Origin: an uncultured Chlorobiaceae bacterium
Lineage (GTDB): Bacteria > Bacteroidota > Chlorobiia > Chlorobiales > Chlorobiaceae
NCBI GenBank assembly: GCA_903942355.1
Contig: CAJAOR010000058.1
Coordinates: 1-54,200, forward strand
DNA length: 54,200 bases
Reading direction: 5' to 3'
Positions 10,066 to 54,200 of the stretch are shown here, one piece after another. The notes beneath the pieces were generated by a model. The model was given only the letters and a program-made list of their open reading frames with translations, did not search any database and was not told where the DNA came from. The position numbers and the translations under genes were made by a program. Every line of letters begins with the position of its first letter. Within the stretch, counting starts at the first letter, position 1.

Positions 10066-10073
10066 CAAACACC

Positions 10074-10385: not shown

Positions 10386-10412
10386 TCCAAACCACTTTTT
10401 GTGGGGTTGTAT

Positions 10413-10443: not shown

Positions 10444-10538
10444 GATTCCGCAAGCCTAACCCCTCCCACTTCCAAAAAACTCTCGTATATTGCAAAATCG
10501 GTAACAAGAAAAACGCAACCCCATACTCTTCACCCGAC

Positions 10539-11003: not shown

Positions 11004-11040
11004 AAAGAGATAGCCGGCTGCTTTTAGCGGGGAGGATTCA

Positions 11041-11676: not shown

Positions 11677-11684
11677 CTGCCCCT

Positions 11685-12200: not shown

Positions 12201-12210
12201 AAAAGAGCAG

Positions 12211-12912: not shown

Positions 12913-12930
12913 AGCGTCTCCCGGCACTTT

Positions 12931-15900
12931 TCAAATCCTTATTTTTTCAAGCCGTATGGGTATCAGTTTTGAAACCCCTTCTTCTTCCATGGTGACCCCG
13001 TAAAGTGCCTGGCAGGAGGCCATGGTTTTTTTGTTGTGCGTAACAATAATGAATTGAGTGTTATTCTCAAATTTTTTAAGGAGTTTAATAAACCGGGTAA
13101 CATTTGCATCATCAAGAGGCGCATCCACTTCATCCAGAATGCAGAAAGGGCTCGGTTTTACCAGATAGATGGCAAAGAGAAGCGAAAGAGCCGTCAGCGC
13201 CTTTTCCCCGCCGCTCAATTGCTCAATGGAAAGCGGCTTTTTTCCTCTTGGCTTGGCAACAATCTCAATATGTGCCTCAAGAGGATCTTGGTCTGCACGA
13301 ATCAGCAGATCGACCTCATCGTCCAGCTCAAAAAGCTCCCTGAAAATAGCAATAAAGTTTTTTCTCACCTCACGGAATGTTGCCTCAAATTTCAGGAGGG
13401 CGGTTTTGTTGATCTCCTCTATAGTCGAACGAAGTTCTTTTTCAGCGCTGAACAGATCCTGTCGTTGCTCTGCAAGAAAATCGAGGCGCTTTTTTTCCTC
13501 CTCATATTCATCGAGCGCCAATTCATTGACCGCGCCAAACTGTTCTCGCTGCCTTGTCAGGAGCTCAAGGGTCTGCTTGGCTGCCTTCCTCTCAAATCCA
13601 TCATCAGCAAGAGGCTCCGTCATCAGGGCAAGGTCACAGTTGTGCTTGAGCTGAGCCTCGGTGAAGAGATGGTCAAGCGATTGCTCCAGCTGTATCTTTT
13701 CCTGGGTAAGTGACAAGATGAGCTGCAGAGAGGCTTCATGCTTGCGCCGGAGCTCCCTCAGTCTGGTCTGGCATTCATGATGCTGTGCCTGTCGTTCGCG
13801 GTATGCCAGCGACAGCTCCGAAAATAATTTTTGCTCACCGGCAGCCGCAACAAGCAGCACCTCAAGCTCCGTTTGTATTCTTTCTGATGCCTCCCGACCC
13901 GAAACCCGTTTTTTTTCAGCAGCGGCACATTCCGTCTTGAGCTTTTTGATCTCTTCATGCAGCGACCGCCGATTTTCGGCACAGGCCGCGATGTTAAAGC
14001 TAAGCTTTTCAAGCTGGAGAAGCGAGTCCTTGTAACGACTCTGACGGGCCTGCATCTCCCGCCCAAAAAGATGATGGCGTGTTTCAAGGGAGGTAAGGTT
14101 TTCCTGCAGGGAGCGGATATTTTCACTAAAGCGTGCCGCTGTTGAGCTCTTGCTGCTGATTGCAGGCATCAGCGCCTGCAGTTCAGCTTCGCAGGCCGCT
14201 TTTTGCGCAACCATGCCGGCGATCTCAACGTTAGCCTGCTGCACCTCCCGCTTGCCGGCGCTCTCCTCAGCATCCAGGCGGGCAGCTCTTTTTTCAAGCT
14301 CTCCCAGCTCCGATGCCCGCCGCTCAACCTCCCGGCGTTGTTCGTCCACCCTGATCAGGGCCAGTTCATTTTGCCGTTTCAGCAGGGCCTCCTCCTCCTT
14401 TCTGATTGCTTTTTCGAGAGCCGCCAGCTCTTCCTGAAGCCGGTCACGTACCGCCTTTCTGCCCAAGCGCAACCCTTCACTGCTTTTTGAACTTCCGCCG
14501 AAAAGGAGCCCCCTTCCGGCAAATTTTTCCCCGTCAATGGTCACAAATGAGCAATCAGGGTAGTGCAGGGCAAGGGTTTCAGCCGTTCCGAGATCCTGCA
14601 CCACATAGCTTTTGCCAAGCATCAGCACCAATGCGTGATGAAGTTCCTGCGGATACCTGATGAGTTCAAGAGTTTTCTTTGCGCCGCTGATCTCCGGAAA
14701 ATTGGCTTCAGGGCTTTGGGCAACAAGATCGAGCACCAGAAAATGGAGCTTTCCCTTATTGGAGCGTGTCAGATGGGCGATGCCCTCCTTGGCATCCTGC
14801 AGCGACTGGCAAACATAATAGCTCATGCTTTCGCCAAGCGCGGCATTGACCGCTTTGCGCTGTGAACTCTCAAGTGAGAGCAGATCCGACAGGCATCCAA
14901 GCCCCTGTTTTCCGCTCCTCTGCTTTTCCAGAAAACCGATCCCCTCAGGCATCCCCTCAAAATTATCGAGCACTGAATTGGCAAGCAGAATCTGGTTGTG
15001 CACTTTTTCCCTCTCAGAACGTTGCAGAAGGAGAGCTTCCTGCTTCTCCCCGATCTGGCGGCTTAACCTCTCCCGATGTTCCCGCAACACATTTTCCTGC
15101 TTTTTTGCCCCGGCAATGCTTGCCTTTAGCTGGCTGATCGTTTCCGAAAGCTCCCGGTCGGCGCTGCGGGAGCCTTTCAGCTTGTCATGAACGGCAAGCT
15201 GTTTTGTTTCAAGCCGTTCAATGGCCGACCGCAGGTACTCTTTTTTTGACTCAAGGCTGTGCTTGGTCAAAGCCAGATGGTTGGCCGCACTCTGCTCTTC
15301 AGCACCGGCTTTTCGCTCCCGGGCAAGCTCCTCTCTCTCTTGGTGGAGCGTGGTATTGAGCTGGTCATGTTCAGCCACAAGACTTTGAAATGCAGCATGC
15401 AGCTCCTTGCAGGCGGCCTCATAAGGGGCTTTCTGCTGCAACAGGCTGTTTTCGAGCCTCTCCTGCTCATCGCTTTTCTGCTCCTTATTGCGGATAATTG
15501 CCCTGAAACGGGCAATATCGTCAGCAAGGCTCTTTTGCTGCCCTTCATGCTGCAAAAGCTCTTTTTCAAGGAGATGAATGCTCTGATTGCATTCGTTAAG
15601 CCTCTTCTGCCTTTCCGACAAGGCACTCTCCTCCTTGAGCAGCAACAGCTCACGCTCCTGTGCCGTGCTGTCCTCAGTGGCTATGGTTACGGCACACGCA
15701 TGATTCAGCAACTCCTCCTCCCTGATGCGGCGCTGCATCGGCTCCAGTTTCTCACGCAACTCCTCCATGCTCAGCCAGGAGAGGGCAAGATCAAGTTCCC
15801 GAATCTTCTGTTTCAGCTCCCTCAACTTTTCAGCTTTACGCACCTGCAGTTTCAGGCTGCGCACCTTCTTTTCAACTTCTGCCAGCACATCATCGACGCG

Positions 15901-26305: not shown

Positions 26306-28429
26306 TTGAAACGTCGTTTTCTCAATCTGGGCAGAAAATGGCTTTCCTGTTCCCGTCAGGTCAAGCGTCTGGTTGTTGTCGCGTTCGACATCTGCTCGTT
26401 GCTGCTGACCGTCTGGATGGCATTCTCGCTCACTCGTAACCTCATGCACAAGCCGGAGGGTCAGGAGTGGCTCGTCTACCTGCTTGCGCCAGTCCTGATG
26501 ATGCCGATCTTTTCACTTTCAGGCATCTATGGTACCATCCAGCGTTTCAACGGGTTTGAGAATTTTATAACGATTTTTAAAAGTGTTTTTTTTTATGGGG
26601 TAGCATTTTTTTGCGTCGTGTTATTTGTGCCTCATCCGCACATCACCATTGCTATAGGAATCCTCCAGCCATTGCTCTTTTTGCTGCTGACAGCAGGAAG
26701 CCGAGTGATGGTGCGCTATCTGAGTTCAACGATTACCGTCAGACCTGAACAAATGTGTCATGCTCCCAACAAGCTGCTGATTTACGGAGCAGGTTCAGCA
26801 GGAGTTGAAATTGTCAATAGTATCAACCGAAGCAGGAAATTTCATCTGGTTGGTTTTATTGATGACAATGAAGAGCTTCAGGGGATGGCCATCAACAGGA
26901 TTAATGTTTTTAGCCCAAAACAGTCCGAAGAGCTGATCCAAAGAAAGGAAGTCAACACTATTCTGCTCGCTTTGCCTTCGGTAAGTCGTACCCGGCGTAA
27001 TCAAATTATTGAGCAATACCGGAAATATTCGGTGCAAATCCAGATGCTGCCGGGAATTGAAGAGCTTGCCGAAGGCAAGGTCACCATATCCGACATAAAA
27101 ACAGTCGATATTGAGGATCTTCTTGGTCGTGACCAGGTGCCGCTCGATCATGCTCTGGTGAAAAAATCCATTACCGGCCGAATCGTGTTGGTTACCGGCG
27201 CCGGAGGGTCAATCGGCAGCGAACTCTGCCGCCAACTGCTGCTCGCTCAGCCATCAATACTCCTGTTGCTCGACCATGCCGAGCATAACCTCTACACGAT
27301 TCACCTCGACCTCACGCTTCGCCATGCAAGCCTCTCATCCGAAACGCGGATTGTGCCGCTGCTCTGCGATGTAACCAATGCGGTTCGTCTCTCTGAAATT
27401 GTCCGCGTCTTCCATCCGGAGGTGATCTACCATGCCGCCGCCTACAAGCATGTGCCGATGGTTGAGCATAACCCTGCAGAAGGGATGCGCAACAACGTGC
27501 TCGGCACCCATGCTATCGCAGAGGTTGCCATGCAGCATGGGGTAAAGAGCGTTATCCTCGTCAGTACCGACAAGGCCGTACGGCCAACCAACGTGATGGG
27601 CGCAAGCAAACGGCTCTGCGAAATGATCCTGCAGGCGCTGAGTGAAGAAACAGGGCACGCAACCTGCTTCTCCATAGTGCGCTTCGGCAATGTTCTTGGC
27701 TCAAGCGGCTCAGTGGTACCCCTTTTTCGCAGCCAGATCAACAGCGGCGGCCCCCTGACCATTACCCATAAAGAGATTACCCGCTACTTCATGACCATCC
27801 CTGAAGCCGCACAACTTATTATCCAGACCGGAGCCATGGCTTCACCGGGCGATCTCCACCTGCTTGAAATGGGCGACCCGGTCAAAATTATCGACCTTGC
27901 CCGAAAGATGGTGGAACTCTCAGGCCTCACCATTCGCGATCATGAAAATCCGGAAGGTGACATAGAAATACACATAACCGGCCTTCGCCCGGGCGAAAAA
28001 CTCTACGAAGAGCTGCTGATCGGCACCAATTCAACCCCCTCAGCCAACCCCCGCATATTCAAAGCCAAAGAGCACTTCATACCCTGGAATGAGCTTCAGA
28101 CCGAACTCGAAGACCTTACCACAGCTATCACCAATAACGATATTCCACATATCAAGCAAATTCTCCAGCGAGTAGTCCCTGAATATCAGCCATCCATAAC
28201 CACCACCGACCTCCTAACCATAGAACAAAAAAAAACGGCAAAAAATACTCCACCACCACCAACAACGGCCACTAACCGTACGGGCACGGCATGCCGTGCC
28301 CCAAAAAATTATGCACCCAACCCCCTCCATAAAAGCGCTTCTCAAACGCCTCTGGCACCACATAACCCCGCGCCGCCGCTCCCAATTCGCCCTGCTCCTC
28401 CTCCTGATGATCGCAGCCTCATTCGCTGA
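26306..28429 (+). CDS. capD: Membrane-bound UDP-GlcNAc 4,6-dehydratase (CapD/WbpM/PglF); C-terminal tail probably extended by a frameshift
   Basis: TM N-terminus, IYGAGSAG, IEDLLGR, VTGAGGSIGSEL, HAAAYKHVP, STDKAVRPTNVMGASKR and GLRPGEKLYEEL. Confidence 0.9.
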   Translation: MKRRFLNLGRKWLSCSRQVKRLVVVAFDICSLLLTVWMAFSLTRNLMHKPEGQEWLVYLLAPVLMMPIFSLSGIYGTIQRFNGFENFITIFKSVFFYGVAFFCVVLFVPHPHITIAIGILQPLLFLLLTAGSRVMVRYLSSTITVRPEQMCHAPNKLLIYGAGSAGVEIVNSINRSRKFHLVGFIDDNEELQGMAINRINVFSPKQSEELIQRKEVNTILLALPSVSRTRRNQIIEQYRKYSVQIQMLPGIEELAEGKVTISDIKTVDIEDLLGRDQVPLDHALVKKSITGRIVLVTGAGGSIGSELCRQLLLAQPSILLLLDHAEHNLYTIHLDLTLRHASLSSETRIVPLLCDVTNAVRLSEIVRVFHPEVIYHAAAYKHVPMVEHNPAEGMRNNVLGTHAIAEVAMQHGVKSVILVSTDKAVRPTNVMGASKRLCEMILQALSEETGHATCFSIVRFGNVLGSSGSVVPLFRSQINSGGPLTITHKEITRYFMTIPEAAQLIIQTGAMASPGDLHLLEMGDPVKIIDLARKMVELSGLTIRDHENPEGDIEIHITGLRPGEKLYEELLIGTNSTPSANPRIFKAKEHFIPWNELQTELEDLTTAITNNDIPHIKQILQRVVPEYQPSITTTDLLTIEQKKTAKNTPPPPTTATNRTGTACRAPKNYAPNPLHKSASQTPLAPHNPAPPLPIRPAPPPDDRSLIR
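28277..28302 (+). repeat. REP-like palindrome
   Basis: cGTACGGGCACGGCATGCCGTGCCCC, with a perfect GGGCACGGCATGCCGTGCCC core resembling GTAG-type REPs. Confidence 0.65.
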
Positions 28430-36644: not shown

Positions 36645-37779
36645 ATGTTTAAAATGCTTTTTACAGGAGATTACTCTCCATCCGGAAGGTATGAAACAAT
36701 AGTTATAAATAAATCGGCTACTATATTCGGTAAGCTTAAAGATGATATTCAAAATGCGGACATTTCATTTGTTAATTTAGAGTCCCTTTATGTTTTACAG
36801 ATATTGGTGTAGAAAAAAAAGTTCTTGTCTAAAAGCTCATCCAGATTGTGCAAATTCAATTATAGATGCAGGTTTTGACGTGGTAGGTTTAGCCAATAAT
36901 CACATTCTTGATTTTAGTGAACAGGGTCTTAAAGAAACTTTACAGGTTTTTAAACAAGCAGGTATCCTTACTTGTGGTGCAGGATCTAACCTATTTGAAG
37001 CCCAAAAGCCAATTTTGATAGAAAAACAGGGAATTAAAGTTGCATATATCGCCATTGCTGAGAAGGAATTTAGTATTGCTCGTTTCGATCGCGCAGGTGC
37101 AGCGCCTCTTGAAACAATGGATAATACCGTACAGATAGAAAACGCAAGCAGTATTGCGGATTTGGTTTTTGTCACCGTTCATGGTGGAAATGAATATTAT
37201 TCTTTTCCGCGACTAGGTTTACGTAAAATATGCAGGTATTTTATAGATCGTGGCGCAGATGGAGTTATCTGCCATCATCCACATGTGGCAGGAGCTTATG
37301 AGTTCTACCAAGACAAACCTATTGTCTATATTTTAGGTAATCTAATCTTTGATCATACAAAATCTCCGCCATGCTGGAATGAAGGTTATGCCTTACGAGT
37401 AGACTATGATATTGAAAAAATGCATCTAATGTCTTACGAAAATATTCCGTATACTCAGTCAGTTTAAAAGCTGGGGATAAATAAAATGCTCAGCTACGAT
37501 AAATCAATATTCTCAAACCGAATAGATCATCTTAATAAAGTTCTTTCCGATGATGTCGCATTCAAAAAATCTTGGGATGAATTTTGTGCGGATAAAGAAA
37601 AAGAGATATTATACAATCAGTTCTTTCCTTTCCAATTCAAGGGGATGTCGAGACTCGCTCAACTGATTCCTTGGCAAAAGGTTTTTATACAAAAGGCATC
37701 ACTCATTCAAAGATTGAACAGGATTCGTTGTGAGTCACACCGTGAGTTATTGTTAAATATATTGAAAAATAAATGTTAG
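36645..37779 (+). pseudogene. CapA/PGA_cap metallophosphoesterase-like protein, broken by two frameshifts and a stop
   Basis: MFKMLFTGD...FVNLES, two apparent 1-bp deletions at about 36785 and 36820, LANNHILDF, VHGGNE, CHHPHV, YILGNLIFD, then TAA at 37465-37467 with the frame continuing to RCESHRE. Confidence 0.8.
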
Positions 37780-38795
37780 CCATTCACCATCGATCAGGTA
37801 GTTTTAGTGACAAGTGGATTGAATATTGCATTCTAAACAAGGTGCCATATAAGCTTGTAGATTGTTATCGCTCTGACATTGTTGAGCAAATTAAAAATTG
37901 TGATGGGTTGATGTGGCATTGGGCACATTATGACCATAAAGCAGTCCTTTTTGCTCGGCAGCTTATTTACTCTCTTGAGAAAATGGGTAAAAAAGTTTTT
38001 CCCAATGCGCATACCTCTTGGCATTATGACGATAAAGTTGGCCAAAAGTACTTGTTGGAGGCTGTTGCCGCTCCATTGGTACCAAGCTATGTGTTTTATG
38101 ACAAGCGAGAAGCACTTGATTGGGCAAAAAAAACAACCTATCCGAAGGTATTCAAGTTGCGTGGGGGGGCCGGTTCCCAAAATGTTCAAATTGTATTAAA
38201 CCTTTTGGCTGCCAATAAGCTAATTAATAAGGCTTTTGGGGGTGGGTTTAATGCATTTAATAGGCGATACTTTTTGACGGAACGATTAGGGCAGTTTCGG
38301 CGTGATAAAACAGTTACTTCATTTTTTAATATCGGCAAAGGGCTTGGGCGTTTGTTTATTCCTACCAAGCAGGAAAAATATTTCTCTAGAGAGCGTAACT
38401 ACATCTATTTTCAAGAATTCATTCCGGAAAATAATTTCGATATCAGAATTAATGTCATTGGTAATCGTGCTTTTGGTTTTAAGCGAATGGTTCGGCAGGG
38501 TGATTTTCGTGCCTCTGGTAGCGGAAAGCTTATCCATGATCCGAATCAAATTCCGATCGATTGTTTGCAAATTGCTCTTGATCTTTCTGTACGTATTCAG
38601 TCTCAAAGTATTGCCTTTGATTTTGTTTTCAATTCAGGAAAGCCGTTATTAGTTGAAGTAAGCTATTGCTTTCCTCCTAGATTCTATTTACTATGTCCCG
38701 GCTATTGGAATGAAAGACTTGAATGGATAGGCGGTCCTTTTACACCAGAGTATTTCATCATCAAAGATTTTTTAATGCAGAGTGATACTATATAA
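37773..38795 (+). CDS. RimK-like ATP-grasp ligase
   Basis: DDKVGQKYLL, YPKVFKLRGGAGSQNV, YFQEFIP..DIRI, FRASGSG, AFDFV and LVEVS; start overlaps the capA-like stop. Confidence 0.82.
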   Translation: MLAIHHRSGSFSDKWIEYCILNKVPYKLVDCYRSDIVEQIKNCDGLMWHWAHYDHKAVLFARQLIYSLEKMGKKVFPNAHTSWHYDDKVGQKYLLEAVAAPLVPSYVFYDKREALDWAKKTTYPKVFKLRGGAGSQNVQIVLNLLAANKLINKAFGGGFNAFNRRYFLTERLGQFRRDKTVTSFFNIGKGLGRLFIPTKQEKYFSRERNYIYFQEFIPENNFDIRINVIGNRAFGFKRMVRQGDFRASGSGKLIHDPNQIPIDCLQIALDLSVRIQSQSIAFDFVFNSGKPLLVEVSYCFPPRFYLLCPGYWNERLEWIGGPFTPEYFIIKDFLMQSDTI

Positions 38796-43529: not shown

Positions 43530-44759
43530 GTGAAAGTTCTTTATCTACATCAGTATTTCAACACTCCGGACATGTCTGGAGGAACGCGTTCTTATGAGAT
43601 GGCCAGACGTTTGGCTTCGCACGGTCATGAGGTACACATGATTACTTCGTGGCGTAAACCAACGGATAGAAAGGGCTGGTTTGAGCAGCAACTTGACGGA
43701 ATTCATGTTCATTGGCTTCCAGTGCCTTATTCAAGTCACATGAGTTTCAGAGAGCGGTTGCAAGCCTTTTCTCATTTTGCTTTACATGCGGGCAACCGGG
43801 CAATTTCTTTAGGTGGAGATGTGATCTTTGCGACGAGCACCCCACTGACTATTGCTATCCCTGGTGTACTGGCGAAATGGCGATTGCGGGTTCCTATGGT
43901 ATTTGAGGTGCGCGATCTCTGGCCGGAATTGCCTATTGCTATTGGTGAATTGCACAATCCATTTTTAAAAGCAGCAGCGCGTTTATTGGAAAAATATGCA
44001 TATCGCAACTCTGCGTGTATTGTTGCTCTCTCTGAAGGTATGGCAGATGGTATTGTTTCTTCCGGTTATCCACGAGAACAAGTTCATGTAATTCCAAACG
44101 GCTCGGACTTGGTATTATTCTGCCCTGTTAATGGGGCCGGTAAGGCATTTCGATCAAAAATTCCTAATGTTGAGGGTAAACCATTAATAACTTATGCTGG
44201 TGCGCTGGGTACCGTCAATGGTGTCGGTTACCTAACTGATATTGCTGCAGCAGCATTAAAGATTGCTCCAGAACTCAGGTTTGCCGTAGTAGGAAAAGGA
44301 AAAGAGTATAAGTTTATCCGTCAACGCGCAAAAGCCTTAGGGGTTTTAGGGCTCACTTTTTTTATGTTTCCATCAGTGCCGAAAAATGAGATGCCTTATG
44401 TATTGGCTGGATCGGATGTGGCTATATCGCTTTTTATAGATCTAGAGCCGATGTGGGCTAATTCAGCAAACAAGTTTTTTGATGCACTGGCGGCATGCAA
44501 ACCGGTCGCGATCAATTATGGCGGTTGGCAGGCAAAAGTGCTTGAGCAGAGTGGCGCAGGTATTCGGTTGCCAGCCAATGATCCGATGTTGGCAGCAAGA
44601 ATGCTTGCCGATTGGACGACGGCCCGAGCGAGTCTGCAAAAGGCTGGAATAGCTGCCCGACGACTTGCGGAAGAGTGTTATGATCGCGATAAGCTCTCTA
44701 CCAAGATGGAAACGGTGTTGCTTACGGCAATACAATCTGGAGGAGGAAAAACTCATTGA
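43530..44759 (+). CDS. Glycosyltransferase family 4 (WbuB-like)
   Basis: LHQYF..P..SGGTRSYEMA, ATSTPL, FEVRDLWPE and NSANKFFDALAA.KP. Confidence 0.88.
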   Translation: MKVLYLHQYFNTPDMSGGTRSYEMARRLASHGHEVHMITSWRKPTDRKGWFEQQLDGIHVHWLPVPYSSHMSFRERLQAFSHFALHAGNRAISLGGDVIFATSTPLTIAIPGVLAKWRLRVPMVFEVRDLWPELPIAIGELHNPFLKAAARLLEKYAYRNSACIVALSEGMADGIVSSGYPREQVHVIPNGSDLVLFCPVNGAGKAFRSKIPNVEGKPLITYAGALGTVNGVGYLTDIAAAALKIAPELRFAVVGKGKEYKFIRQRAKALGVLGLTFFMFPSVPKNEMPYVLAGSDVAISLFIDLEPMWANSANKFFDALAACKPVAINYGGWQAKVLEQSGAGIRLPANDPMLAARMLADWTTARASLQKAGIAARRLAEECYDRDKLSTKMETVLLTAIQSGGGKTH

Positions 44760-44863
44760 AAAGATTATTTGATCTTGTTTTCACCATTCCCGGTTTACTT
44801 TTGATTGCGCCTCTGTTACTTATTCTCGCTTTTTTGGTCAGAATCACTACTGGCCAACTATAA
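44756..44863 (+). pseudogene. 5' fragment of a priming sugar transferase
   Basis: TTG overlaps the GT stop; MKRLFDLVFTIPGLLLIAPLLLILAFLVRITTGQL* (KR.FD + TM) truncated before the IS cluster. Confidence 0.75.
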
Positions 44864-45027
44864 GTCAAATAAATTCAATCGGTTACAGATATAGGCCTCT
44901 GGAATTGCACCAAAAGAATTGGTAAATAATTTTAAAATATTAACTTATTCAAATACACTGACTCTCAAAATCTGTAGGAAAGTGTAGAGAGTTATATCAA
45001 AATTCATGCGATTTTTAACTAAAGCTA

Positions 45028-46104
45028 TAAGCGCTCATCAAAAAGTCATGACGTAATCCTTACCAAAACCGTCCAAGATTTTGCAGACATCTTCTTCAAG
45101 AGTTTTGACATTTCTCGTCTTGAATTCCATCAATTCATACTTCACCTTGTGCCAAAATTTTTCAATGCGATTGAGTTCTGGACTGTAAGGCGGCAGGAAA
45201 TAGAGTGACAGCCCCTTTTGAGCCAACACCTTCAACATCGGTTGAATCGCTTTCGCTTTGTGGAATGACGCATTATCCAGAATGACAGTCAACGGCTTGC
45301 CCACGTAGTTCATCAGCAGACCAAGAAAACCGGTAAAGAACAGTGAATTTGTTGTTTGCCATATCGCAACTGAGAACAAATCACCTGTTGAGAGCATGGC
45401 TCCGATGACATTCAGGCGTTTCCCCCTATTGGCGTCAATCTTATGGCATTTGCCTACAGGCGTCCAAGCACTGCGGTTTGGCTGGGCCAGTGCAAAACCA
45501 GTTTCATCAACAAAGGCTAAGGTGATTTCACCACGTACGGCTTGCTCTTTCAGCTCTTCTATTTCGAACTCTGATTGTCTAAACCTGACTTCATCGCGTT
45601 TTTTTTAAGCTATGACGTGTACGTTTCCAGATAGTGCCAAGTGATTTCAAAGCATTACGCACGGTACCTACGCTCACTTCTATATCGCACTCTTCCTTTA
45701 ACCGGGCCACTATCGCAGGGGCTGTCAGCGCTTCCTTTTCCGTCCAAATCTTGATGTGTTCACGGTGAATTGCGTTCAGTTTCGGAGGTGCGCCGCTTCG
45801 ATGAACATCGAACAAAAAGGCAAACCCTTTTGATAACCAGTTCTTACGACGGTCATAAACCGTATCGATATTCAGGCCTTGTAACGCCATAATATCATTT
45901 GCTCTCAACCCATCATCAAAATATAAAAGTGTTTGAGCCCGATGACGGGCTCGCCAATCACTCCCTTTTGCCACAACTTCTTGTAGCTTTGCACGATCAT
46001 CGGGAGCTAATTCCAAGTCACTCAACTTCATGATTTACAGGGGCTGGGGCTTCTGTTTCCTTTCTTGCCCTTATATTACGGAATAATTTTTTGTTCACCG
46101 CTTA
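45028..46104 (-). mobile_element. IS630-family element, apparently intact; OrfA 46031-45591 and OrfB 45598-45038 joined by an A8 frameshift
   Basis: Imperfect IRs TAAGCGGTGAACAA / TAAGCGCTCATCAA with terminal TA; HTH OrfA; DDE triad VDETG, LDNASFH and LPPYSPELNRIE. Confidence 0.9.
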
Positions 46105-46119
46105 AGCACGTACGGAATA

Positions 46120-46340
46120 TGTCAACAAAGATATCGCTTTGTTTGAAAAAAATTATCCAACTTTATCCGGGTTCAGAACGACTTCCCGGAGAATTTCCCA
46201 TTGCTTGACGGATCGAGTACCTCAACGTTCAGGATATCTTATCTGAGCCTGCCGCATCTTTAAGTTCCTCTGCTCAAAAATCGCTTCAGCCTGACCGGTG
46301 CGCATCTCTTCCGGCGTTACATATCCGATCGTAGAATGCA
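46120..46340 (-). mobile_element. IS3-family 3' end (OrfB C-terminus plus right IR)
   Basis: Minus strand reads LHSTIGYVTPEEMRTG..R...YPER*G..WE...VLNP, then ...GATATCTTTGTTGACA terminus. Confidence 0.75.
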
Positions 46341-46368
46341 GATGGTGCCTCAACCAAGGAGGCGAATC

Positions 46369-46831
46369 ATGGGATATTCAAGAGCTGTAAGATCAAGTGT
46401 GCTGAAAAAAGTCTTGCCACCTGATGCGCGAAGTATCGTTGAAATCAGCAGAGAAACCGCATTAATGATCAGACTATCCGGAATTGGATCAAGAAGAGTG
46501 AATCGTGTATCTTACCGGATGGTAGCCAGGAGAGCAGTCTGCGATTCATGACCCCGAAGGAGAAATACCAGTTAGTGCTTGAGGCCGCCGGCATTGATAA
46601 CGAACAACTTGGCTTATTTCTCAGAGAACGTAGCCTGCACTCAGAACACCTAACGATCTGGGATCAGGAGCTCTGAGAAATGAATGAGAAGAAAAATGAT
46701 AAAAGGGATCAAGAGCTTAAAGCCTTAAAGAAGAAAAACCAAGAGCTTGAGAAAGAGCTACAGCGTAAGGATAAGGCTTTGCCTGAAACACTAGCGTTGC
46801 TGCTTCTTAAAAAAAACTGGTCGTTCTTATG
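46369..46831 (+). pseudogene. IS3-family OrfA, degenerate
   Basis: AGGAGG RBS; MGYS..VLKKVLPP..I.DQTIRNW, EKYQLVLE..LGLFLRE..LHSEHL..W and ELQRKDKAL.E..ALLLLKK with an A8 slip site; one frameshift and one stop. Confidence 0.75.
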
Positions 46832-46877
46832 AAGTCCACAAACTAAATGCTCATATGTTGAGTGAAATGGGGATAAA

Positions 46878-47480
46878 GTGATTAAGCGTTTATTGGATAT
46901 CGTTGTTTCGGCTTTCGGTCTACTTTTGCTAGCTCCTATTATTAGCATCATTGCTTGGCAGGTTCATAGGAAGCTTGGTTCTCCAGTGTTTTTTCGACAG
47001 ACCCGACCTGGTATGTATGGCCAGTCCTTCGAGATGATAAAGTTCCGCACCATGCGCGATGCGTACGATGCCGATGGTAAGCCCTTGTCAGATTCTGAGC
47101 GCATGACTTCTTTTGGACGTTTTTTGCGTTCATCGAGTCTGGATGAATTGCCGGAATTCTGGAATGTACTGAAGGGGGATATGAGCTTGGTGGGCCCACG
47201 TCCGCTATTGATGGAATACCTGGATTACTATACAGAAGATGAGTTATTGCGGCATAGTGTTAGACCAGGAATTACTGGGCTGGCACAGGTAACGGGTCGT
47301 AATGCCATAAAATGGGATGAACGGCTTGGTTATGATGTTCAGTATGTCAAAACACGCACGTTTTTTATGGATCTAAAGATTTTTTTTAAAACCATCTATC
47401 AAGTATTTAAGCATGAAGGTGTCGTAGCTGTTCCCTCTGAGGTCTATCAAAAGCTCAGTGACGAAAGGAAAGAACAGTGA
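46878..47480 (+). CDS. Priming sugar-phosphate transferase (small PglC-type phosphoglycosyl transferase)
   Basis: KRLLDI + TM, FFRQTRPG, KFRTM, SLDELPE, GDMSLVGPRP and RPGITGLAQV. Confidence 0.92.
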   Translation: MIKRLLDIVVSAFGLLLLAPIISIIAWQVHRKLGSPVFFRQTRPGMYGQSFEMIKFRTMRDAYDADGKPLSDSERMTSFGRFLRSSSLDELPEFWNVLKGDMSLVGPRPLLMEYLDYYTEDELLRHSVRPGITGLAQVTGRNAIKWDERLGYDVQYVKTRTFFMDLKIFFKTIYQVFKHEGVVAVPSEVYQKLSDERKEQ

Positions 47481-48385
47481 TAAGTACACCAACACTTCCT
47501 TCTCCAATCCACCGCCTTGATCGTCTTTCCAATGCATGGTGCATTGATCTTTGGGCTAAGCGCGATGATCTTATCCCTCAATACCTCGGCGGAAATAAGG
47601 TTCGTAAAGTATTTGGCATTTTGCGATCTGCTTTTGCATCAGGGGATGTGCCTGACGTGCTCATAACTAATGGAGGTGCAGAATCTAATCATGCGAGGGT
47701 AGTCGCTTTGATGGGCGCACAGTTGGACTGCAAAGTTCATCTTGTCTTACATGGTCAAGAACCTTTCAGGAACAGTACATCAGGAAACTCTTTTTTTTAC
47801 CGTAGTGCTGGTGCAACAACACATTATGTTGATAGCCAGAATATTGGCACGACCATCCAAGCACTAGAACGTAGAGCCCGAGAGCAAAATTTGTCTGTGC
47901 TGGTGATCCCGGGAGGCGGGCACTCTGTTGATGGAGTCAAGGCATATGAGAAGGCTATAGATGAATTGACCTTTGAGCCGGACTGCATTGTGCACGCCTC
48001 GGGAACCGGAGCCACTCAGGCAGGTCTGCTGCAAGGTGTTGCTGGTAAAAATTGGCGTACTCGAGTTATCGGCATTTCTGTCGCTAGGACAGCGGAACGG
48101 GGTATCGATGAAATCGCTAAGTTGCTGGCGGCGGATTTCCCGAGAAAACTGATCGATTTTCGGGATGACTATCGGTTTGGTGGCTATGAGAAATTCGATG
48201 ATGTATTGATACGGTTTGTGAAAGACGTGATAAGAGAAGAGGGGATTCCACTTGACTTAACTTACACAGGAAAAGCAATGTACGCCTTGCGGCAACTTGT
48301 TTTTTCTGGTGAAATTGAGTCAGATAGCAAAATTGTTTTTTTGCATACGGGTGGTTTGTTGAATCTTACAGCTATTAATTCATAG
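47477..48385 (+). CDS. PLP-dependent D-cysteine desulfhydrase/ACC deaminase family enzyme
   Basis: KRDD..GGNKVRK PLP lysine, SNHAR, SGTGATQAGL, LD..YTGKA and FLHTGG; GTGA overlap with the upstream gene. Confidence 0.85.
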   Translation: MISTPTLPSPIHRLDRLSNAWCIDLWAKRDDLIPQYLGGNKVRKVFGILRSAFASGDVPDVLITNGGAESNHARVVALMGAQLDCKVHLVLHGQEPFRNSTSGNSFFYRSAGATTHYVDSQNIGTTIQALERRAREQNLSVLVIPGGGHSVDGVKAYEKAIDELTFEPDCIVHASGTGATQAGLLQGVAGKNWRTRVIGISVARTAERGIDEIAKLLAADFPRKLIDFRDDYRFGGYEKFDDVLIRFVKDVIREEGIPLDLTYTGKAMYALRQLVFSGEIESDSKIVFLHTGGLLNLTAINS

Positions 48386-48400
48386 GCATAAGGGGGGAGC

Positions 48401-48958
48401 ATGGCGGGTTTTAATCTGAAAGGAGAGAGAATCGAATTGGTATTGCTTGAAAGGGAACATTTAAATAAGCGAGTTGAATTTTTAAATGATCCAGAAGTTC
48501 AAAAAACGCTCAATTTCGACTATCCGACTTCTATAGCAAAAACAGAGGCTTGGTTTTCTAAAAATATACTTAACTCCAATCGTGTTGACTTTGCATTTGT
48601 GTTGAGTGCTACTTTGGATATTATTGGGTTTGGTGGATTCATAAATATAAACTATAGAGCTAAAAAAGCTGAACTATATATTTTTATTGGCGAGAAGGCT
48701 TGCTGGGGCCAAGGATTTGGGCGTGATGGTTATAAACTGTTAGTAAATTACGCATTTGGCGAATTAGGGCTTGACCGTATATATCTTTATCAGTTGGCAG
48801 AAAACTCTAGAGCCATAAAAGCAACAGAGTCTTTGGGCTGGTTTACTGAAGGCTTACTTAGGAACGATATTTGGTCACACGGTGAATTAAAAGACCAGTA
48901 TCTGTTGTCTTTTTTAAGATCTGAGTGGGTAAATAGCGATTTTTACAAAACCGTTTAG
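48401..48958 (+). CDS. GNAT N-acetyltransferase (RimL/PseH-like)
   Basis: KAELYIFIGEK..WGQGFG, AFGELGLDRIYL, N.RAIK..E.LG..EGLLR; AGGGGGGAG RBS. Confidence 0.85.
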   Translation: MAGFNLKGERIELVLLEREHLNKRVEFLNDPEVQKTLNFDYPTSIAKTEAWFSKNILNSNRVDFAFVLSATLDIIGFGGFININYRAKKAELYIFIGEKACWGQGFGRDGYKLLVNYAFGELGLDRIYLYQLAENSRAIKATESLGWFTEGLLRNDIWSHGELKDQYLLSFLRSEWVNSDFYKTV

Positions 48959-48986
48959 CCTAAGGGCATCACTATTTCTTGAATGA

Positions 48987-49244
48987 TAAGCGGTGAACAA
49001 GAAATCATTCCACAAAGCGAAAACAGTTCAACCGATGTTGGAGGTGCTGGCTCAGAAGGGGCTGAAGCTTTATTTCTCGACACCTTACAGCCCAGAACTC
49101 AATCGCATTGAAAAGTTTTGGCACAAGGTGAAGTATGATTGATGGAATTCAAAACGCAAAATTTCAAAACTATTGAAGACGATGTCTGCAAAATCATGGA
49201 CGGTTTTGGTACGGAATACGTAATGACTATTTGATGAGCGGTTA
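48987..49244 (+). mobile_element. Internally deleted IS630 derivative (MITE-like, 258 bp)
   Basis: Left IR TAAGCGGTGAACAAGAAATCATTCC joined directly to the transposase 3' end (ACAAAGCGAAA..CCAGAACTCAATCGCATTGAA..) and right end TTGATGAGCGGTTA. Confidence 0.85.
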
Positions 49245-49323
49245 TTTCTTTCAGGAATAAATCTCTAGGTTCATATTCCCCGCTTTCTGAGGAGTAAAGA
49301 TATTATAGAGTTGTCTTCAAAAT

Positions 49324-49345
49324 ACCCCGCTGCTTGCGACGGGGT
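49324..49345. repeat. GC-rich imperfect palindrome (REP- or IS200/IS605-end-like)
   Basis: ACCCCGCTGCTTGCGACGGGGT, with a degenerate partner TTCCCCGCTTTCTGAGGAG at about 49276. Confidence 0.4.
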
Positions 49346-49376
49346 TCTTTATTTAGTGATGCCCATACGTGGAGAG

Positions 49377-50396
49377 ATGAAAAAAACAATGTACAGAGTT
49401 TTGCTGACTTGCGCTGGACGACGCCACTATTTAGCTTCGTTTTTCAAAGAAGCACTAGTCTCGTCTGGACGGGTTGTTGGAACGGATATGGATTTATCGG
49501 CTCCTGCACTGCAAGCTTGCGATGTCGTTCACAAGGTTCCGGGGGTGTTTGCGGATAATTATCTGGATGCCCTGAAAGAAGTGATGATCAAAGAAAGAGT
49601 TGACATGGTTTTTTCTTTGAATGACCTTGAAGTGGGCTTGCTGGCCGAAAATCGGGAGATGCTTGAGCGGGAAACCGGTGCCACGGTTTATGTACCCTCG
49701 GTCGAGACCCTGAAGGTGTGTGAAGACAAGTGGCTCACCTACCAGTTTGCAATGGAAATCGGTATAGATACTCCATCTACCTATCTTTCTGTTAATGCGG
49801 CAACGTATGCTATTGATACCGGTGAGACTTGTTTTCCGTTAATCGTTAAACCGCGCTGGGGGAGTGCATCAATTGGACTTTTTATGGTCGATTCTATTGA
49901 TGCTCTGATTTCATGCTATGAGGCATGCCGTAAGGCTGTGGCCCATAGTATCCTCGTTTCCCTGGATACTGATTTTTGCGTAATTATTCAGGAGGTGATT
50001 CACGGACCAGAATACGGAGTTGATCTTCTATATGGTAAACGCGAGGATTTTATTGGCTTTGCAGCAAAAAAGAAAATGGCCATGCGTGCCGGTGAAACAG
50101 ATAAGGCAGTAACCGTCGATCCTGAACCCTTTCAAAAGATTGTTGAAAAAATATCTTTAGCATTGCCGCATCGCGGTAACCTCGATTGTGATTTTATGAA
50201 GCGGGATGGCAAGTTGTATTTACTAGAGCTTAATCCTAGATTCGGGGGGGGCTATCCTTTTACCCATCTGGCTGGAGCTAACCATGTTCAGATGCTACTT
50301 GATGATTATCAGGGGAATAATTTAACACCCTATGGTTATCAGGTCGGTAAGGCTTTTGCCAAGTGCGATACCTTAGTTGAAGTGCCTGTTGGTTGA
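49377..50396 (+). CDS. ATP-grasp ligase (carbamoyl-phosphate-synthase-like / PylC-like N-terminus)
   Basis: VLLTCAGRR, DKWLT, FPLIVKPRWGSASIG, IIQEVI.GPEY, MRAGETDK and LELNPRFGGGYP; start at 49377 or 49389. Confidence 0.85.
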   Translation: MKKTMYRVLLTCAGRRHYLASFFKEALVSSGRVVGTDMDLSAPALQACDVVHKVPGVFADNYLDALKEVMIKERVDMVFSLNDLEVGLLAENREMLERETGATVYVPSVETLKVCEDKWLTYQFAMEIGIDTPSTYLSVNAATYAIDTGETCFPLIVKPRWGSASIGLFMVDSIDALISCYEACRKAVAHSILVSLDTDFCVIIQEVIHGPEYGVDLLYGKREDFIGFAAKKKMAMRAGETDKAVTVDPEPFQKIVEKISLALPHRGNLDCDFMKRDGKLYLLELNPRFGGGYPFTHLAGANHVQMLLDDYQGNNLTPYGYQVGKAFAKCDTLVEVPVG

Positions 50397-50412
50397 ACAT
50401 TTCTCTCTATGG

Positions 50413-50667
50413 TAAGTGCTTTTAAAATAAAGGAGGAACACAGTCATTATAAAAATACCGTTTTAGGCCTGATGCTGATATCCCACCAACGAAGGTTTTG
50501 TGAGCGCAGCAGTCTTTTTTCCAGATTCTTTTTTTCTTTGCCACAGAGCTTGATACCCTTCTGGTATACCGTATCCACTGGTATTGCCCTTGCGGCTATC
50601 CCTCGCCAAGCAAATCTGCTGGAACGATTTATGACGGTTGCTACACTCTCAAGTAGATAACCATTCC
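50413..50667 (-). mobile_element. ISAzo13-family transposase C-terminal remnant
   Basis: WNGYLLESVATV....W.G......VYQKGIKL....LEKRL.RS..L.WWDISIRP. Confidence 0.7.
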
Positions 50668-50985
50668 ATGGCGCTCGATACAAGGGGCGCAACGTAGGGA
50701 GTATTGGACACATTGGTGCATAGAGTTTTGGCCAGGACAAAGGATTATGACGACGGGCGGAGAGGGTGGCATGGTGACCACCAATGATGCTGCTTTGTTG
50801 GTCGCGGATTTGGTCGTTCAAGGATCATGGCAAAAGCTGGGAGGCGGTTTCTGAGCGCGAGCATCAGCCAGGGTTTAGCTGGTTGCATGATTCATTCGGT
50901 ACGAACTGGCGGATAACGGAGATGCAATCGGTGATCGGCCAAATTCAGTTGCAGCGGATGGCGGAGTGGACATTAAAGCGCTGGG
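50667..50985 (+). pseudogene. DegT/DnrJ sugar aminotransferase internal fragment (PglE-type)
   Basis: HGARYKG..VGSIGHIGA*SF.QDK/IMTTGGEGGMVTTND/WS..WSFKDHGK..WLHDSFGTNWR.TEMQ with a TAG stop and frameshifts. Confidence 0.85.
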
Positions 50986-52093: not shown

Positions 52094-53023
52094 ATGATTG
52101 ACATATCAGTAGTCATTCCCGTATACCGCTCTCAGGACAGCCTGCGAGAGCTTTATCAACGATTAACAGTGGTTCTTGAGGCTCAGTCGTTAAGTTTTGA
52201 GATCTTGTTTGTGGAGGATTGTGGTGGCGATAATTCTTGGGAGGTGATTCTGGAACTGGCAGAAAAGGATAAAAGGGTTCGAGGATTAAGCATGAGTCGC
52301 AACTATGGGCAACATAACGCATTATTAGCTGGAATTCGGGCGGCTAATGGTCAGATGATTGCAACTTTTGATGATGATCTGCAGAATCCCCCTGAGGAAT
52401 TGCCTATGTTACTCTCTAAAATCCGTGAAGGCTACGATGTTGTATATGGATCATCGCTTAGAAAACAGCATGGATTTTTTCGGGACATGGCTTCGCAGAT
52501 TACTAAAATAGCACTGCAGAGGGTAATGGGGGCGGAAACGGCAAAGTACGTCAGCGCTTTCAGGGTTTTTCGTACAGAACTCAGGGGAGCATTCAATGAA
52601 TACAAAAGCCCTACAGTAAACATCGACGTTCTTCTTACCTGGGCAACAACAAAGTTTGTCGCAATACCAGTTAAACTTGATGTCCGGAAATACGGTGATT
52701 CTGGTTATTCCGTTCGAAAGCTAATGCATCATGCCATGAACATGATGACTGGTTTTTCGACGATTCCTTTGAAATTGTCTAGTTTTATTGGCTTTTTGTT
52801 TTCCTTTTTTGGTCTGTGTTTACTCGCATATGTTTTGTTAAGCTATTTTATTGTTGGTGGCGCTGTGCCTGGTTTTCCATTTCTTGCTTCTGTAATTGCA
52901 TTGTTTTCAGGCGCACAACTTCTTGCGCTTGGGATAATTGGCGAGTATTTTGCAAGAATGCACGAAAGAACAATGGACAGACCTGCATATTTTTTAAGAG
53001 AAATTACCAGATCAAGAGAATAA
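52094..53023 (+). CDS. Undecaprenyl-phosphate glycosyltransferase (GtrB/ArnC-like GT2)
   Basis: SVVIPVY, SRNYGQHNALLAG, DDDLQNPPEE, two C-terminal TMs, LGIIGEY.AR. Confidence 0.88.
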   Translation: MIDISVVIPVYRSQDSLRELYQRLTVVLEAQSLSFEILFVEDCGGDNSWEVILELAEKDKRVRGLSMSRNYGQHNALLAGIRAANGQMIATFDDDLQNPPEELPMLLSKIREGYDVVYGSSLRKQHGFFRDMASQITKIALQRVMGAETAKYVSAFRVFRTELRGAFNEYKSPTVNIDVLLTWATTKFVAIPVKLDVRKYGDSGYSVRKLMHHAMNMMTGFSTIPLKLSSFIGFLFSFFGLCLLAYVLLSYFIVGGAVPGFPFLASVIALFSGAQLLALGIIGEYFARMHERTMDRPAYFLREITRSRE

Positions 53024-53803
53024 ATGTCTTTGTTATCGAAAAAATTTTCAATTGAAACAAGAGGGTTATTGCTTAAAGCAGATCTTGTTTCTTGGGATAC
53101 AGAAATATTTGATTATCCTGTATGCAGAATCGAGTGCTTTAAAATCATCGATCCTGATATAATTAATGATGATTATATGGTATTTGAATCTTGGCGGGAT
53201 ATTAACAAATTTAAACTGATAAGCTGTCGGTTGAGTCATGACAAGCTTTATGAGTCAATATTCTTGGAAGAAAAAGGTTTCCGTTTTATTGAGACCGTTC
53301 TTCATCCAAATTTTGAGGAACTCTTTCAACAAAATTTATCTGATCAAGGGCTTGAAATCATTCCAGCCGATCAAACCGATATGCCAGTCCTTACAAGAAT
53401 TGCTGAGTCGGCTTTCAGAAATGAGAGGTTCCATGTTGATCCAAGACTTGACCAACGACTTGGGGACCTTCGTTACGTACGTTGGGTTGAAAACACCTTG
53501 AAACACCCTCGACAAAAATTAATAAAAATTCTTGATAATGAAATTATAGTTGCTTTTTTCATTATTGAAGTTTTGGATGATGGTCGCGTTTATTGGCATC
53601 TTACAGCGGTTTCGCCAGACCAACAGGGTAAAGGTTATGGTCGCCGAACATGGCTTGCAATGCTTCGCTATCATCAGGAGAATGGATGCGTTGCAGTTAG
53701 TACAACAATATCAGCAAGGAATATCCCGGTTTTAAATCTTTATTCCAGTTTAAACTTTCGTTTTTTGCCTCCTGAAATGACCTTCCATTGGAAGCGTGAA
53801 TGA
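53024..53803 (+). CDS. GNAT acetyltransferase, WecD (TDP-fucosamine acetyltransferase)-like
   Basis: WDTEIF, RFHVDPRL..Y.RW, AVSPDQQGKGYG and N..VLNLY..L.F. Confidence 0.72.
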   Translation: MSLLSKKFSIETRGLLLKADLVSWDTEIFDYPVCRIECFKIIDPDIINDDYMVFESWRDINKFKLISCRLSHDKLYESIFLEEKGFRFIETVLHPNFEELFQQNLSDQGLEIIPADQTDMPVLTRIAESAFRNERFHVDPRLDQRLGDLRYVRWVENTLKHPRQKLIKILDNEIIVAFFIIEVLDDGRVYWHLTAVSPDQQGKGYGRRTWLAMLRYHQENGCVAVSTTISARNIPVLNLYSSLNFRFLPPEMTFHWKRE

Positions 53804-54062
53804 TAAGAAAAGCGTTAGGCTGGCAGATTGTTCGTTTTGGTATTGTAGGTATCGCCTCGAATATAGTGCTGTATATGCTCTATTGTGGTATTACAAGTAT
53901 TGGGCTTGGTTACAAGCTTGCAATGTCATTATTGTATGTTGTTGGTGTTATACAGACATTTTTTTTCAATAAGAAATGGACCTTCAACCACCAAGGTTAT
54001 TTGAACGTTACACTCCTTCGCTATATCGTTATCTATGGGGTTTGTTATTTGATCAACCTTGG
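53800..54062 (+). pseudogene. GtrA-family flippase truncated by IS insertion
   Basis: RFGIVG..N, FFFNKKWTF and RY..Y; the frame runs into the IS end after about 88 codons. Confidence 0.75.
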
Positions 54063-54200
54063 TGTGATCGGAAAACAAGAATAAGCCAAAAACGGAAAAT
54101 AAGAATCACCCAGGGTTAGCGTAAAAAACACCCATAGCTCGTAGTTTGAAGGTGCAAACCAAATCAAACCCCAGAGCTATGAGGACACAGTTAAAAAAGC
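54063..54200 (+). mobile_element. Probable IS21-family left end with start of transposase (ATG 54179)
   Basis: TGT terminus then two approximately 20-bp direct repeats (CGGAAAACAAGAATAAGCCA / CGGAAAATAAGAATCACCCA), as in IS21 ends; ORF MRTQLKK runs off the window. Confidence 0.6.

Follow-up and report, generated by a model that had tools for sequence, protein, structure and literature searches.

Gene content of the cassette

Contig CAJAOR010000058.1 of an uncultured Chlorobiaceae bacterium (assembly GCA_903942355.1, in which it is contig C58) was analyzed over its full 54,200 nucleotides, referred to here as the window. Toward its end lies a glycan cassette of five parts, all on the + strand, in the order priming transferase, DcyD-like pyridoxal 5'-phosphate (PLP) enzyme, GNAT, PRK12767-type ATP-grasp ligase and DegT relic. 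The PLP enzyme, the ligase and the GNAT are treated together as a module, which is predicted to attach an amino acid to the amine of a glycan sugar and to cap it.

The priming transferase is a small, intact phosphoglycosyltransferase of the PglC type (46878..47480, 200 aa; PF02397, E 4.6e-63), 74.5% identical to that of a Marinobacter cassette (L012). The bases GTGA at 47477-47480 are common to its end and to the start of the PLP gene (47477..48385), which encodes an intact 302-aa fold-type II enzyme of the DcyD/1-aminocyclopropane-1-carboxylate (ACC) deaminase family (PF00291). The gene for the GNAT acyltransferase (48401..48958, 185 aa, intact; PF13302) starts 15 bp past the PLP stop codon. 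The best NCBIfam model of the GNAT is PseH (TIGR03585), whose cut-off it nonetheless fails (46.7 against 93.1). The co-oriented parts, the overlap and the 15-bp gap had all been described in a prediction made earlier from the letters of this stretch (the original prediction), and all were confirmed. That prediction also had the five parts and their order right, and one correction applies: a 247-bp IS630 transposase remnant with a broken frame (49005..49251, + strand; 87.5% over 248 bp to window 45021-45268) separates the GNAT from the ligase, and the cassette is therefore not continuous.

The ligase is intact (49377..50396, 339 aa; PF21360, PF02655, NF009404), has a PylC-like N-terminal domain and passes the NCBIfam cut-off for PRK12767.1-3 (371.2 bits, cut-off 316). 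Its nearest solved relative is PDB 2pn1 (339-aa record P0476). We know of no PRK12767 ATP-grasp enzyme with a tested function. No hexapeptide acetyltransferase was found among the scanned open reading frames (ORFs) of the cluster, in line with the original prediction's remark that a PglD-type one is absent, and none of the 10 TIGR03570 matches in the host genome reached the cut-off of that model. WbqC was absent from the scanned window ORFs.

The PLP enzyme belongs to a separate branch of the DcyD family

The structural model of the PLP enzyme (predicted local distance difference test score, pLDDT, 96.8) has DcyD as its best fold match, with a template modeling (TM) score of 0.91 and 30% identity. 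Across the DcyD proteins of Salmonella, E. coli and Pectobacterium (PDB 4d8t, 7ysk) and Pyrococcus 1j0a, the fold is alike (TM 0.83-0.91), but identity is only 30-32% and no NCBIfam cut-off is passed. Scores against cut-offs were 127.4/429, 98.5/610 and 96.5/469 for DcyD models, 161.8/289.4 for TIGR01275, 141.2/450 for XcbE and 166.3/450 for the closest model, the cysteate sulfo-lyase CuyA. The ACC deaminase model TIGR01274 failed as well (93.4/392), and T264 and T291 stand where ACC deaminase has Glu and Leu. The motifs YTGK (263-266) and HTGG (290-293) were indeed found in place of the YEGK/HLGG of an ACC deaminase row (L094), as had been claimed.

A tree of 71 of the 106 rows (3 long-branch and 32 redundant rows excluded) separated 61 glycan rows from 10 others, comprising DcyD, ACC deaminase, XcbE (the Xanthobacter gene L093) and archaeal homologues, with support of 100/99. 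The phylogeny proposed as a check in the original prediction thus places the PLP enzyme in a glycan-locus clade and not with housekeeping DcyD.

Most of the DcyD active site is kept. DcyD K51, S78, Y261, Y287, T288 and T315 correspond to window K41, S70, Y237, Y263, T264 and T291, the equivalents of N79 and H80 are also present, and S70, N71, K41 and Y263 are invariant in a 145-sequence alignment. The differences are E69, which replaces DcyD Q77 at a position varying between E, Q, S and D across the clade, and H149, which replaces S161 within the active-site loop 158-161 and is present in 80 of 81 glycan rows. In the accessible part of PMC3344862, residues 158-161 of DcyD are placed in the active site and Q77 and S78 are named as specificity residues; the α-hydrogen is turned toward Tyr287 in D-Ser and toward Lys51 in L-Ser, and both are abstracted by the Pyrococcus homologue. 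The two opposed bases are kept in the window enzyme as K41 and Y263, but DcyD has both and is no known racemase. By analogy, this two-base geometry would allow a racemase and does not show one. Aspartate and serine racemases of fold type II provide precedents. The PLP enzyme is the predicted supplier of an amino acid and a candidate racemase.

The module recurs in glycan loci of many phyla

A scan of species genomes with a 50-sequence alignment gave 515 confirmed stretches, the best 80 of which resolved into 79 genome loci; neighboring genes were found by six-frame profile searches. An ATP-grasp gene lies within 3.5 kb of the PLP gene in 74 of these loci, DegT is found in 71 and a priming transferase within 3.5 kb in 68, and 76 of the 79 have DegT or the transferase. 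The co-occurrence that the original prediction had asked about is therefore found elsewhere. The three loci with neither gene (L036, L041, L087) lack the clade histidine and group with housekeeping enzymes. Two other loci have no ligase nearby: one is a 2-kb contig (L016) and in the other the ligase is 7 kb off (L050). The hosts of the module fall into 12 named phyla, and source names for the PLP gene include Proteus mirabilis, Providencia stuartii, P. alcalifaciens, P. rettgeri, Morganella, E. coli and Vibrio.

As a control, 78 metagenome loci were sampled (13 truncated or unclassified, 2 not called). A module gene lay within 1.5 kb of 45/45 genes with the GG[GA]H motif versus 0/18 full-length genes without it. 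The glycan and housekeeping types coexist in single genomes: DcyD-like matches were obtained in 23 of 24 Providencia genomes, nearly all at 33-36% and of the housekeeping type, and the glycan type was found in 2 of the 24.

Two layouts were observed. In the first, the module accompanies a priming transferase (uridine diphosphate (UDP) route), as in the window and on a Sphingobium plasmid. In the second, it accompanies rmlBA, wzx and vioA, which define a route through deoxythymidine diphosphate (dTDP)-linked 4-amino-4,6-dideoxyglucose (Qui4N), as on E. coli plasmids and in Providencia, Vibrio and Pseudoalteromonas; one Pseudoalteromonas locus (L017) holds both. Since the module also occurs beside rmlBA-vioA, it is not tied to bacillosamine or to the priming transferase. 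The grouping is not due to chance, and the module reads as a horizontally spread glycan-tailoring set.

Searches of plasmids and of E. coli found the module on four E. coli plasmids and one Sphingobium plasmid only. The E. coli plasmid pLAU-OXA3 and three like it are small, come from human isolates and carry a partial O-antigen-like cassette flanked by insertion sequences, with an epimerase, rmlBA, wzx, vioA, the module and one glycosyltransferase (GT). In a Desulfohalobiaceae bin (L026, 11789-13942), the module adjoins an STT3/PglB oligosaccharyltransferase, and its sugar product may therefore be the first residue of an N-glycan on protein. A metagenome scan with a Proteus protein gave zero matches, a search of the Providencia family matched 1 of 401 genomes, namely the search center itself, the window DNA had no match in E. 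coli, viral contigs held no relative of the module, and atlas searches returned generic family clusters only.

The predicted cap position is interchangeable and the ligase has other partners

Domain scans of 16 long representatives showed fusions of the PLP domain with a GNAT (seven), a formyltransferase (four), an ATP-grasp domain (one) and a priming transferase (one). Further fusions were found in L011, L029, L066, L076, L077 and L080, and GNAT-ligase and transferase-GNAT fusions were also seen. The slot of the window GNAT is taken by a formyltransferase in five genome loci (L013, L022, L023, L046, L061), by a different short GNAT in seven, and by a second ligase with a HAD phosphatase in L164-L166, probably one population. 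Replacement of the GNAT by a formyltransferase or a second ligase is what would be expected if this slot caps the new amine. Most Lachnospiraceae have nothing in this slot but encode a GNAT ~8-10 kb upstream. Over 177 aa, the window GNAT shares 28% identity with its counterpart in the E. coli O123/O186 cluster, and the short GNAT of relatives is 33-36% identical to that of O121, a weak hint at the capping of an amino acid. In L164-L166 (~7700-13000), tandem ATP-grasp modules, a ligase with HAD phosphatase followed by the PLP enzyme with its ligase, stand between priming transferase and DegT and may build a two-residue chain on the sugar.

The reverse test started from the ligase, with 13 relatives drawn from 401 Bacteroidota genomes and 400 scored genomes of the class Gammaproteobacteria. 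Its result suggests that the ligase acylates more generally, next to DegT or priming-transferase genes, with the PLP enzyme as one donor-supplying partner. In L148 (G002:C6), L137 (G119:C32), L146, L147 and L149-L152, an ATP-grasp and a HAD phosphatase form a sister cassette, in most cases together with priming transferase and DegT; it might attach an acyl group in phosphorylated form and afterwards strip off the phosphate. In another locus (L145, G571:C37), the order runs from a fold-type III PLP decarboxylase-like gene through a ligase of this family to a spermidine-synthase-domain protein, with no obvious glycan locus around it. A 225-aa ligase neighbor in L142 and L143 was considered as an Asp/Glu racemase and rejected, as it looks like a methyltransferase.

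Comparison with known systems

In the Pgl pathway, bacillosamine is built and loaded by PglF, PglE, PglD and PglC. The window cluster shares the dehydratase, aminotransferase and priming transferase of that pathway, but the three genes of the module replace PglD. A different parallel is Aslfm, an ATP-grasp D-aspartate ligase that forms a D-aspartyl amide on peptidoglycan and is encoded next to its own PLP-independent racemase RacD; no model of this type was among the best 25 of 33 NCBIfam matches.

The E. coli O antigens O121 (N-acetylglycyl), O123 (hydroxybutyryl-D-alanyl) and O63 (N-acetyl-D-allo-threonyl), whose substituents are given in the accessible parts of PMC7685785 and PMC10609480, likewise combine an aminotransferase, extra enzymes and an N-acyl cap. 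The extra enzymes differ: the O121 cluster has WbqC and a GNAT, the O123 cluster WbqC, a GNAT and MaoC, and the O63 cluster an extra DegT-like PLP protein and a hexapeptide acyltransferase. They thus use WbqC or unclassified proteins, and no DcyD-like gene or ATP-grasp is annotated in them. WbqC had no match in the 79 genome loci, whereas in one metagenome locus (L156:12279-12992) a WbqC gene directly follows the PLP and ligase genes, making both aminoacylation routes possible in one cluster. An O63-type locus (L238:4685-7011) groups a divergent second DegT-family protein (315 aa), an unclassified 296-aa protein and a hexapeptide acyltransferase; the first two are candidates for the epimerase and transferase of N-acetyl-D-allo-threonine.

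The capsule of Campylobacter jejuni HS:2 also receives an amide through PLP enzymes and an ATP-grasp enzyme (Cj1438), with a HAD phosphatase (Cj1435). As described in the accessible part of PMC11800379, the carboxyl there comes from the sugar and the amine from the small molecule, through a TupA-like ligase. In the window module, by contrast, it is the sugar that is predicted to provide the amine, and a PylC-like ligase is combined with a DcyD-like PLP enzyme. The PRK12767 ATP-grasp/HAD cassettes (PDB 2pn1) likewise have a ligase of this family, equally placed between priming transferase and DegT, and occur also in two genomes of the host's own genus (G002, G119). They differ in having a phosphatase as partner and ligases only 25-34% identical to that of the window; no characterized product was found for them.

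Proposed pathway

The reading preferred here, with a probability of roughly 0.7, is that the PLP enzyme supplies an amino acid, which the ligase joins in amide linkage to the C4 amine of a nucleotide-activated 6-deoxy amino sugar, and that the GNAT caps the product. CapD would form UDP-4-keto-6-deoxy-GlcNAc and DegT would convert it to the 4-amine; the chemistry of both families is known, the CapD gene is present, and the DegT gene is broken here and intact in relatives. The PLP enzyme would convert an amino acid between its L and D forms; a racemase that yields a D-form such as D-aspartate is the most likely case. The ligase would turn the carboxyl into an acyl phosphate and then acylate the sugar amine, a chemistry known for its family and predicted for this substrate, and the GNAT, or the formyltransferase in relatives, may cap the free amine of the amino acid. 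The priming transferase would, by known family chemistry, load the product onto undecaprenyl phosphate. For the enteric and Vibrio-like versions, the acceptor would be dTDP-Qui4N. The genes, their decay in this genome, their recurrence, the branch, the fusions and the swaps are observed, while the reactions, their order and the residue are inferred.

The original prediction had proposed the same core of acyl donor, ligase and cap, and this core is supported by the recurrence of the genes, the glycan-locus branch, the fusions and the swaps in the cap slot. Its restriction to a bacillosamine-type starter sugar did not hold, given the rmlBA-vioA contexts. A 2-oxo acid, one of the donors it had named, is disfavored because it leaves no amine for the interchangeable caps.

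Several observations count against the proposed pathway. Some 30 of the 79 loci come from Lachnospiraceae-like relatives, and clade-derived patterns served to choose the loci, so the counts overstate independence. A quick 97-row tree that included the three long-branch rows, which fall inside the glycan set there, needed two changes and not one, with a Shimodaira–Hasegawa approximate likelihood ratio test (SH-aLRT) value of 100 on the DcyD side. A GNAT or formyltransferase lies within 1.5 kb in only 40 of the 79 loci, so the GNAT is optional, and the GNAT similarities of 28-36% are about family background. In the reverse test the PLP gene was near 0 of the 13 ATP-grasp relatives and a HAD phosphatase near 8, and the PLP-linked ligases do not form one branch, requiring four changes on the ligase tree.

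The amino acid donor

Aspartate is suggested tentatively, at somewhat short of even odds, as the residue in the window's own subclade. With the same reserve, this branch of the DcyD/ACC-deaminase family might be a PLP-dependent aspartate racemase which, with a PylC-like aspartyl ligase acting on a nucleotide sugar and a swappable cap (acetyl, formyl, a second ligase or none), would make up the missing pathway to N-acetyl-D-aspart-4-yl amino sugars. Most bacteria do not stock D-aspartate, unlike D-alanine, and a dedicated racemase would be sensible for D-aspartate but not for D-alanine. D-Aspartate is also known from P. mirabilis O38, and a D-aspartyl sugar from Treponema medium. Substituents of Qui4N listed in Table 2 of PMC10609480, as far as accessible, are N-acetyl-D-aspartyl in P. 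stuartii O33, N-acetyl-L-aspartyl in O4 and alanopine in O35.

A Providencia cluster (G072) combines rmlBA, vioA, the module, one GT2, two GT4, ugd and a Gla-like epimerase, its GT2 being 41% identical to the GT that follows vioA in an O116-family cluster. The epimerase was read as Gla from its matches to PDB 5u4q and 6zl6, which we take to be uronate epimerases. By general rules of GT stereochemistry, this gene content fits the tetrasaccharide repeat of O33 and not those of O4 or O35; the L-aspartate of O4 would need a variant of the module. The comparison with known polysaccharides that the original prediction had called for gave this one gene-content match; a second Providencia cluster (G065), which also has ugd, matches none of the O33, O4 and O35 structures.

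That failure is one of several points that weaken the case for aspartate. The O33 fit is one of gene content, and depends on the stereochemistry rules and on the Gla label that we assume. Two GT genes of G072 are interrupted, by a frameshift and a stop, and the strain is not serotyped; among the strains considered, no serotyped one ties the module to a solved structure. O38 and O4 are not among the 60 clusters of the Proteus cluster paper in its accessible part. With only ~36-37% identity to their Providencia counterparts, the window enzymes may act on a different residue, and for this reason aspartate is held to its tentative grade. D-Ala, Gly and D-allo-Thr were marked down because their E. 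coli clusters use other genes, a second route being conceivable. No enzymes for D-aspartyl sugars were found in print.

The strongest alternative shares the module logic and differs on the residue alone. The PLP enzyme would racemize serine, or would carry out β-elimination or β-replacement on O-phosphoserine or cysteine, with products such as cysteate or diaminopropionate, free or after ligation. This is held to be unlikely, even though the characterized family members are all β-eliminases or deaminases and the closest NCBIfam model is that of CuyA (166 bits, cut-off 450). The variable position of Q77, a D-Cys determinant, also speaks for another residue, but the carboxylate-binding S-N-H loop is intact, with S70 and N71 invariant, and suits a free amino acid. 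The HAD phosphatase that accompanies the ligase in 8 of 13 sister cassettes suggests phosphorylated donors by analogy with Cj1438/Cj1435 (accessible part of PMC11800379), whereas the sole gene-content match to a solved repeat points at aspartate. L-allo-Thr is found on Qui4N in V. cholerae O43 (PMC10609480, accessible part) and the module occurs in Vibrio; the D-allo-Thr cluster of O63, however, is built from other genes.

Alternatives to the module logic

A quite improbable alternative redistributes the roles. The GNAT or formyltransferase would acylate the sugar C4 amine directly, in a PseH-like manner and in place of PglD, and the ATP-grasp enzyme would join a PLP-made amine to the carboxyl of a uronic acid at another place in the repeat, in the way Cj1438 works in Campylobacter. 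The cluster does lack PglD and PseH is the best model of the GNAT, but the PseH cut-off is failed. Although both Providencia clusters contain ugd, a gene of the UDP-sugar dehydrogenase family (labeled by similarity, one member confirmed) was found in 35 of the 79 loci against 71 for DegT, and none is present among the window cluster ORFs. Amidation of glucuronic acid by an ATP-grasp enzyme with a PLP-made amine is established in the accessible part of PMC11800379, where Cj1438 is, however, described as TupA-like and not PylC-like. Moreover, the ligase stands directly between transferase and DegT even in the GNAT-less HAD-type cassettes, and a separate ATP-grasp of the window (37773-38795) could perform a carboxyl amidation. 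That the PLP enzyme is an ordinary D-cysteine/D-serine degrader, beside glycan genes by chance or as a detoxifier, is very improbable: it has the DcyD fold and the DcyD catalytic residues except Q77, but module genes lie beside 45/45 clade genes versus 0/18 non-clade genes, the enzyme falls on a separate branch with both types side by side in genomes and with repeated fusions, and E. coli dcyD sits in a cystine-transporter operon (tcyJ-dcyD-tcyL) and not in a glycan context.

Fate of the window copy

Under the preferred reading, in which the ligase acylates a sugar amine, DegT is needed for the 4-amine, and its gene is destroyed here, as the original prediction had recognized. The relic (50667..50981, + strand) retains ~105 of ~390 codons and is 63% identical to residues 161-264 of the intact 391-aa DegT of L012. 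It has an in-frame stop at 50721-50723 and two frameshifts; 5 stops fall within the family match. The place of the lost 5' part is occupied by a repeated element of 212 bp (50438..50649, no strand assigned; 91.6% to contig C4:2828-3041). Among the longest pieces, contigs of runs X1 and X3 bridge the ligase end to the repeat and the relic to the next gene with zero differences, and one contig of run X4 crosses repeat and relic gap-free. As the same layout is seen in contigs from runs of three studies, one run possibly being the source sample, an artefact of assembly is excluded.

Supply of DegT in trans, which had been offered as an option, found no support. The relic is 48-63% identical to the intact DegTs of the closest cassettes, whereas six other DegT-family genes of the assembly reach only ~25-37%. 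With no intact orthologue in this 2.19-Mb, 77% complete assembly, the copy is probably orphaned, a view held with some confidence. A complete Pgl-type pathway was not found in the same 77% complete assembly, in which the aminotransferase for the 4-keto sugar is present as the relic only; with DegT destroyed, the pathway is likely dead in this genome. The PLP gene was found in 0 of 36 genomes of the same genus, and its nearest tree neighbors are from Marinobacter, Halomonadaceae, Halopseudomonas and a Christensenellales bin, a distribution that suggests horizontal gain.

The surrounding glycan locus

The host is chlorosome-bearing, as the chlorosome protein PF02043 is present in the assembly; the Fenna–Matthews–Olson (FMO) protein was not detected in it. 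Host sequence turns up in pond and freshwater metagenomes. The glycan locus extends from ~23.3 kb to the window end, with low guanine-plus-cytosine content from 30 kb onward. Domain scans of the window ORFs identified a Wzc/Wzz-like protein, CapD, an ABC transporter, a Wzy_C-domain protein and several GTs.

The CapD/PglF-type UDP-GlcNAc 4,6-dehydratase (26306..28429, + strand; PF02719, E 1.4e-115), the predicted maker of the 4-keto sugar, is encoded 20 kb upstream of the cassette in the same locus and is 48.5% identical to the cassette-adjacent CapD of L019. A Pfam GT4 glycosyltransferase (43530..44759, + strand) precedes the cassette here and in close relatives, with 49-51% identity to the pre-cassette GT4 of L012 and L019, and is predicted to add the second sugar. 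It is followed by the 5' stub of another priming transferase (44756..44860, + strand; 69% over 32 aa to the L026 transferase), by an IS630 element (45021-46060) with DDE_3 and HTH domains, located by blastn, and by a further transposase-like remnant (~46340-46830) that blastn also found on contig C118. All of these (44756-46860) lie 5' of the intact transferase, an order which suggests that one starter cassette replaced another.

Elsewhere in the locus (36790-38795), an apparently split CapA/PGA_cap-like gene (36790-37467 and 37486-37779) precedes a second, RimK-like ATP-grasp of 340 aa (37773-38795; domain scan), possibly a separate amidation module. At 52094-54084, an ArnC-like GT2, a WecD-like GNAT and a GtrA-like protein cut near the contig end are predicted to form a separate set for undecaprenyl-linked sugar modification. 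Two near-identical loci of the assembly (C38:13603-15255 and C238:4426-6078) stand beside CDP-sugar genes; in both, a short N-terminal ORF is in frame with, and then runs into, an RfbH-like DegT-family gene. The host genome contains one PF01177 match.

Implications

The window's own copy is of little weight in itself, being probably dead. The enzyme set, however, is real, widespread and apparently undescribed, and its chemistry, the aminoacylation of glycan amino sugars, is of a known kind. No description of the module was found in the literature searched, most papers on the structures of O antigens and on their gene clusters being in subscription journals outside the search; the same holds for any role of the DcyD family in sugar building. 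Amino acids on the amino sugars of O antigens and capsules are known as structures and shape antigenicity (PMC10609480, accessible part), and the module provides three named candidate enzymes for D-aspartyl sugars.

If the proposed pathway is true, the DcyD/ACC-deaminase family would gain a new job, probably racemization for glycan building. Databases label the family "ACC deaminase/D-cysteine desulfhydrase", and the common false call of a plant-growth trait from that label would be corrected. It would also be the first function for the ligases of the PRK12767 family, labeled "carbamoyl phosphate synthase-like", which seem to acylate sugar amines in general and to do so with exchangeable partners. 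For glycan synthesis, an enzyme able to ligate amino acids to nucleotide sugars would be of practical use. Should the aspartate assignment also be true, D-aspartyl sugars and unreported N-formyl versions of them would occur in a dozen phyla, from gut Lachnospiraceae to cyanobacteria.

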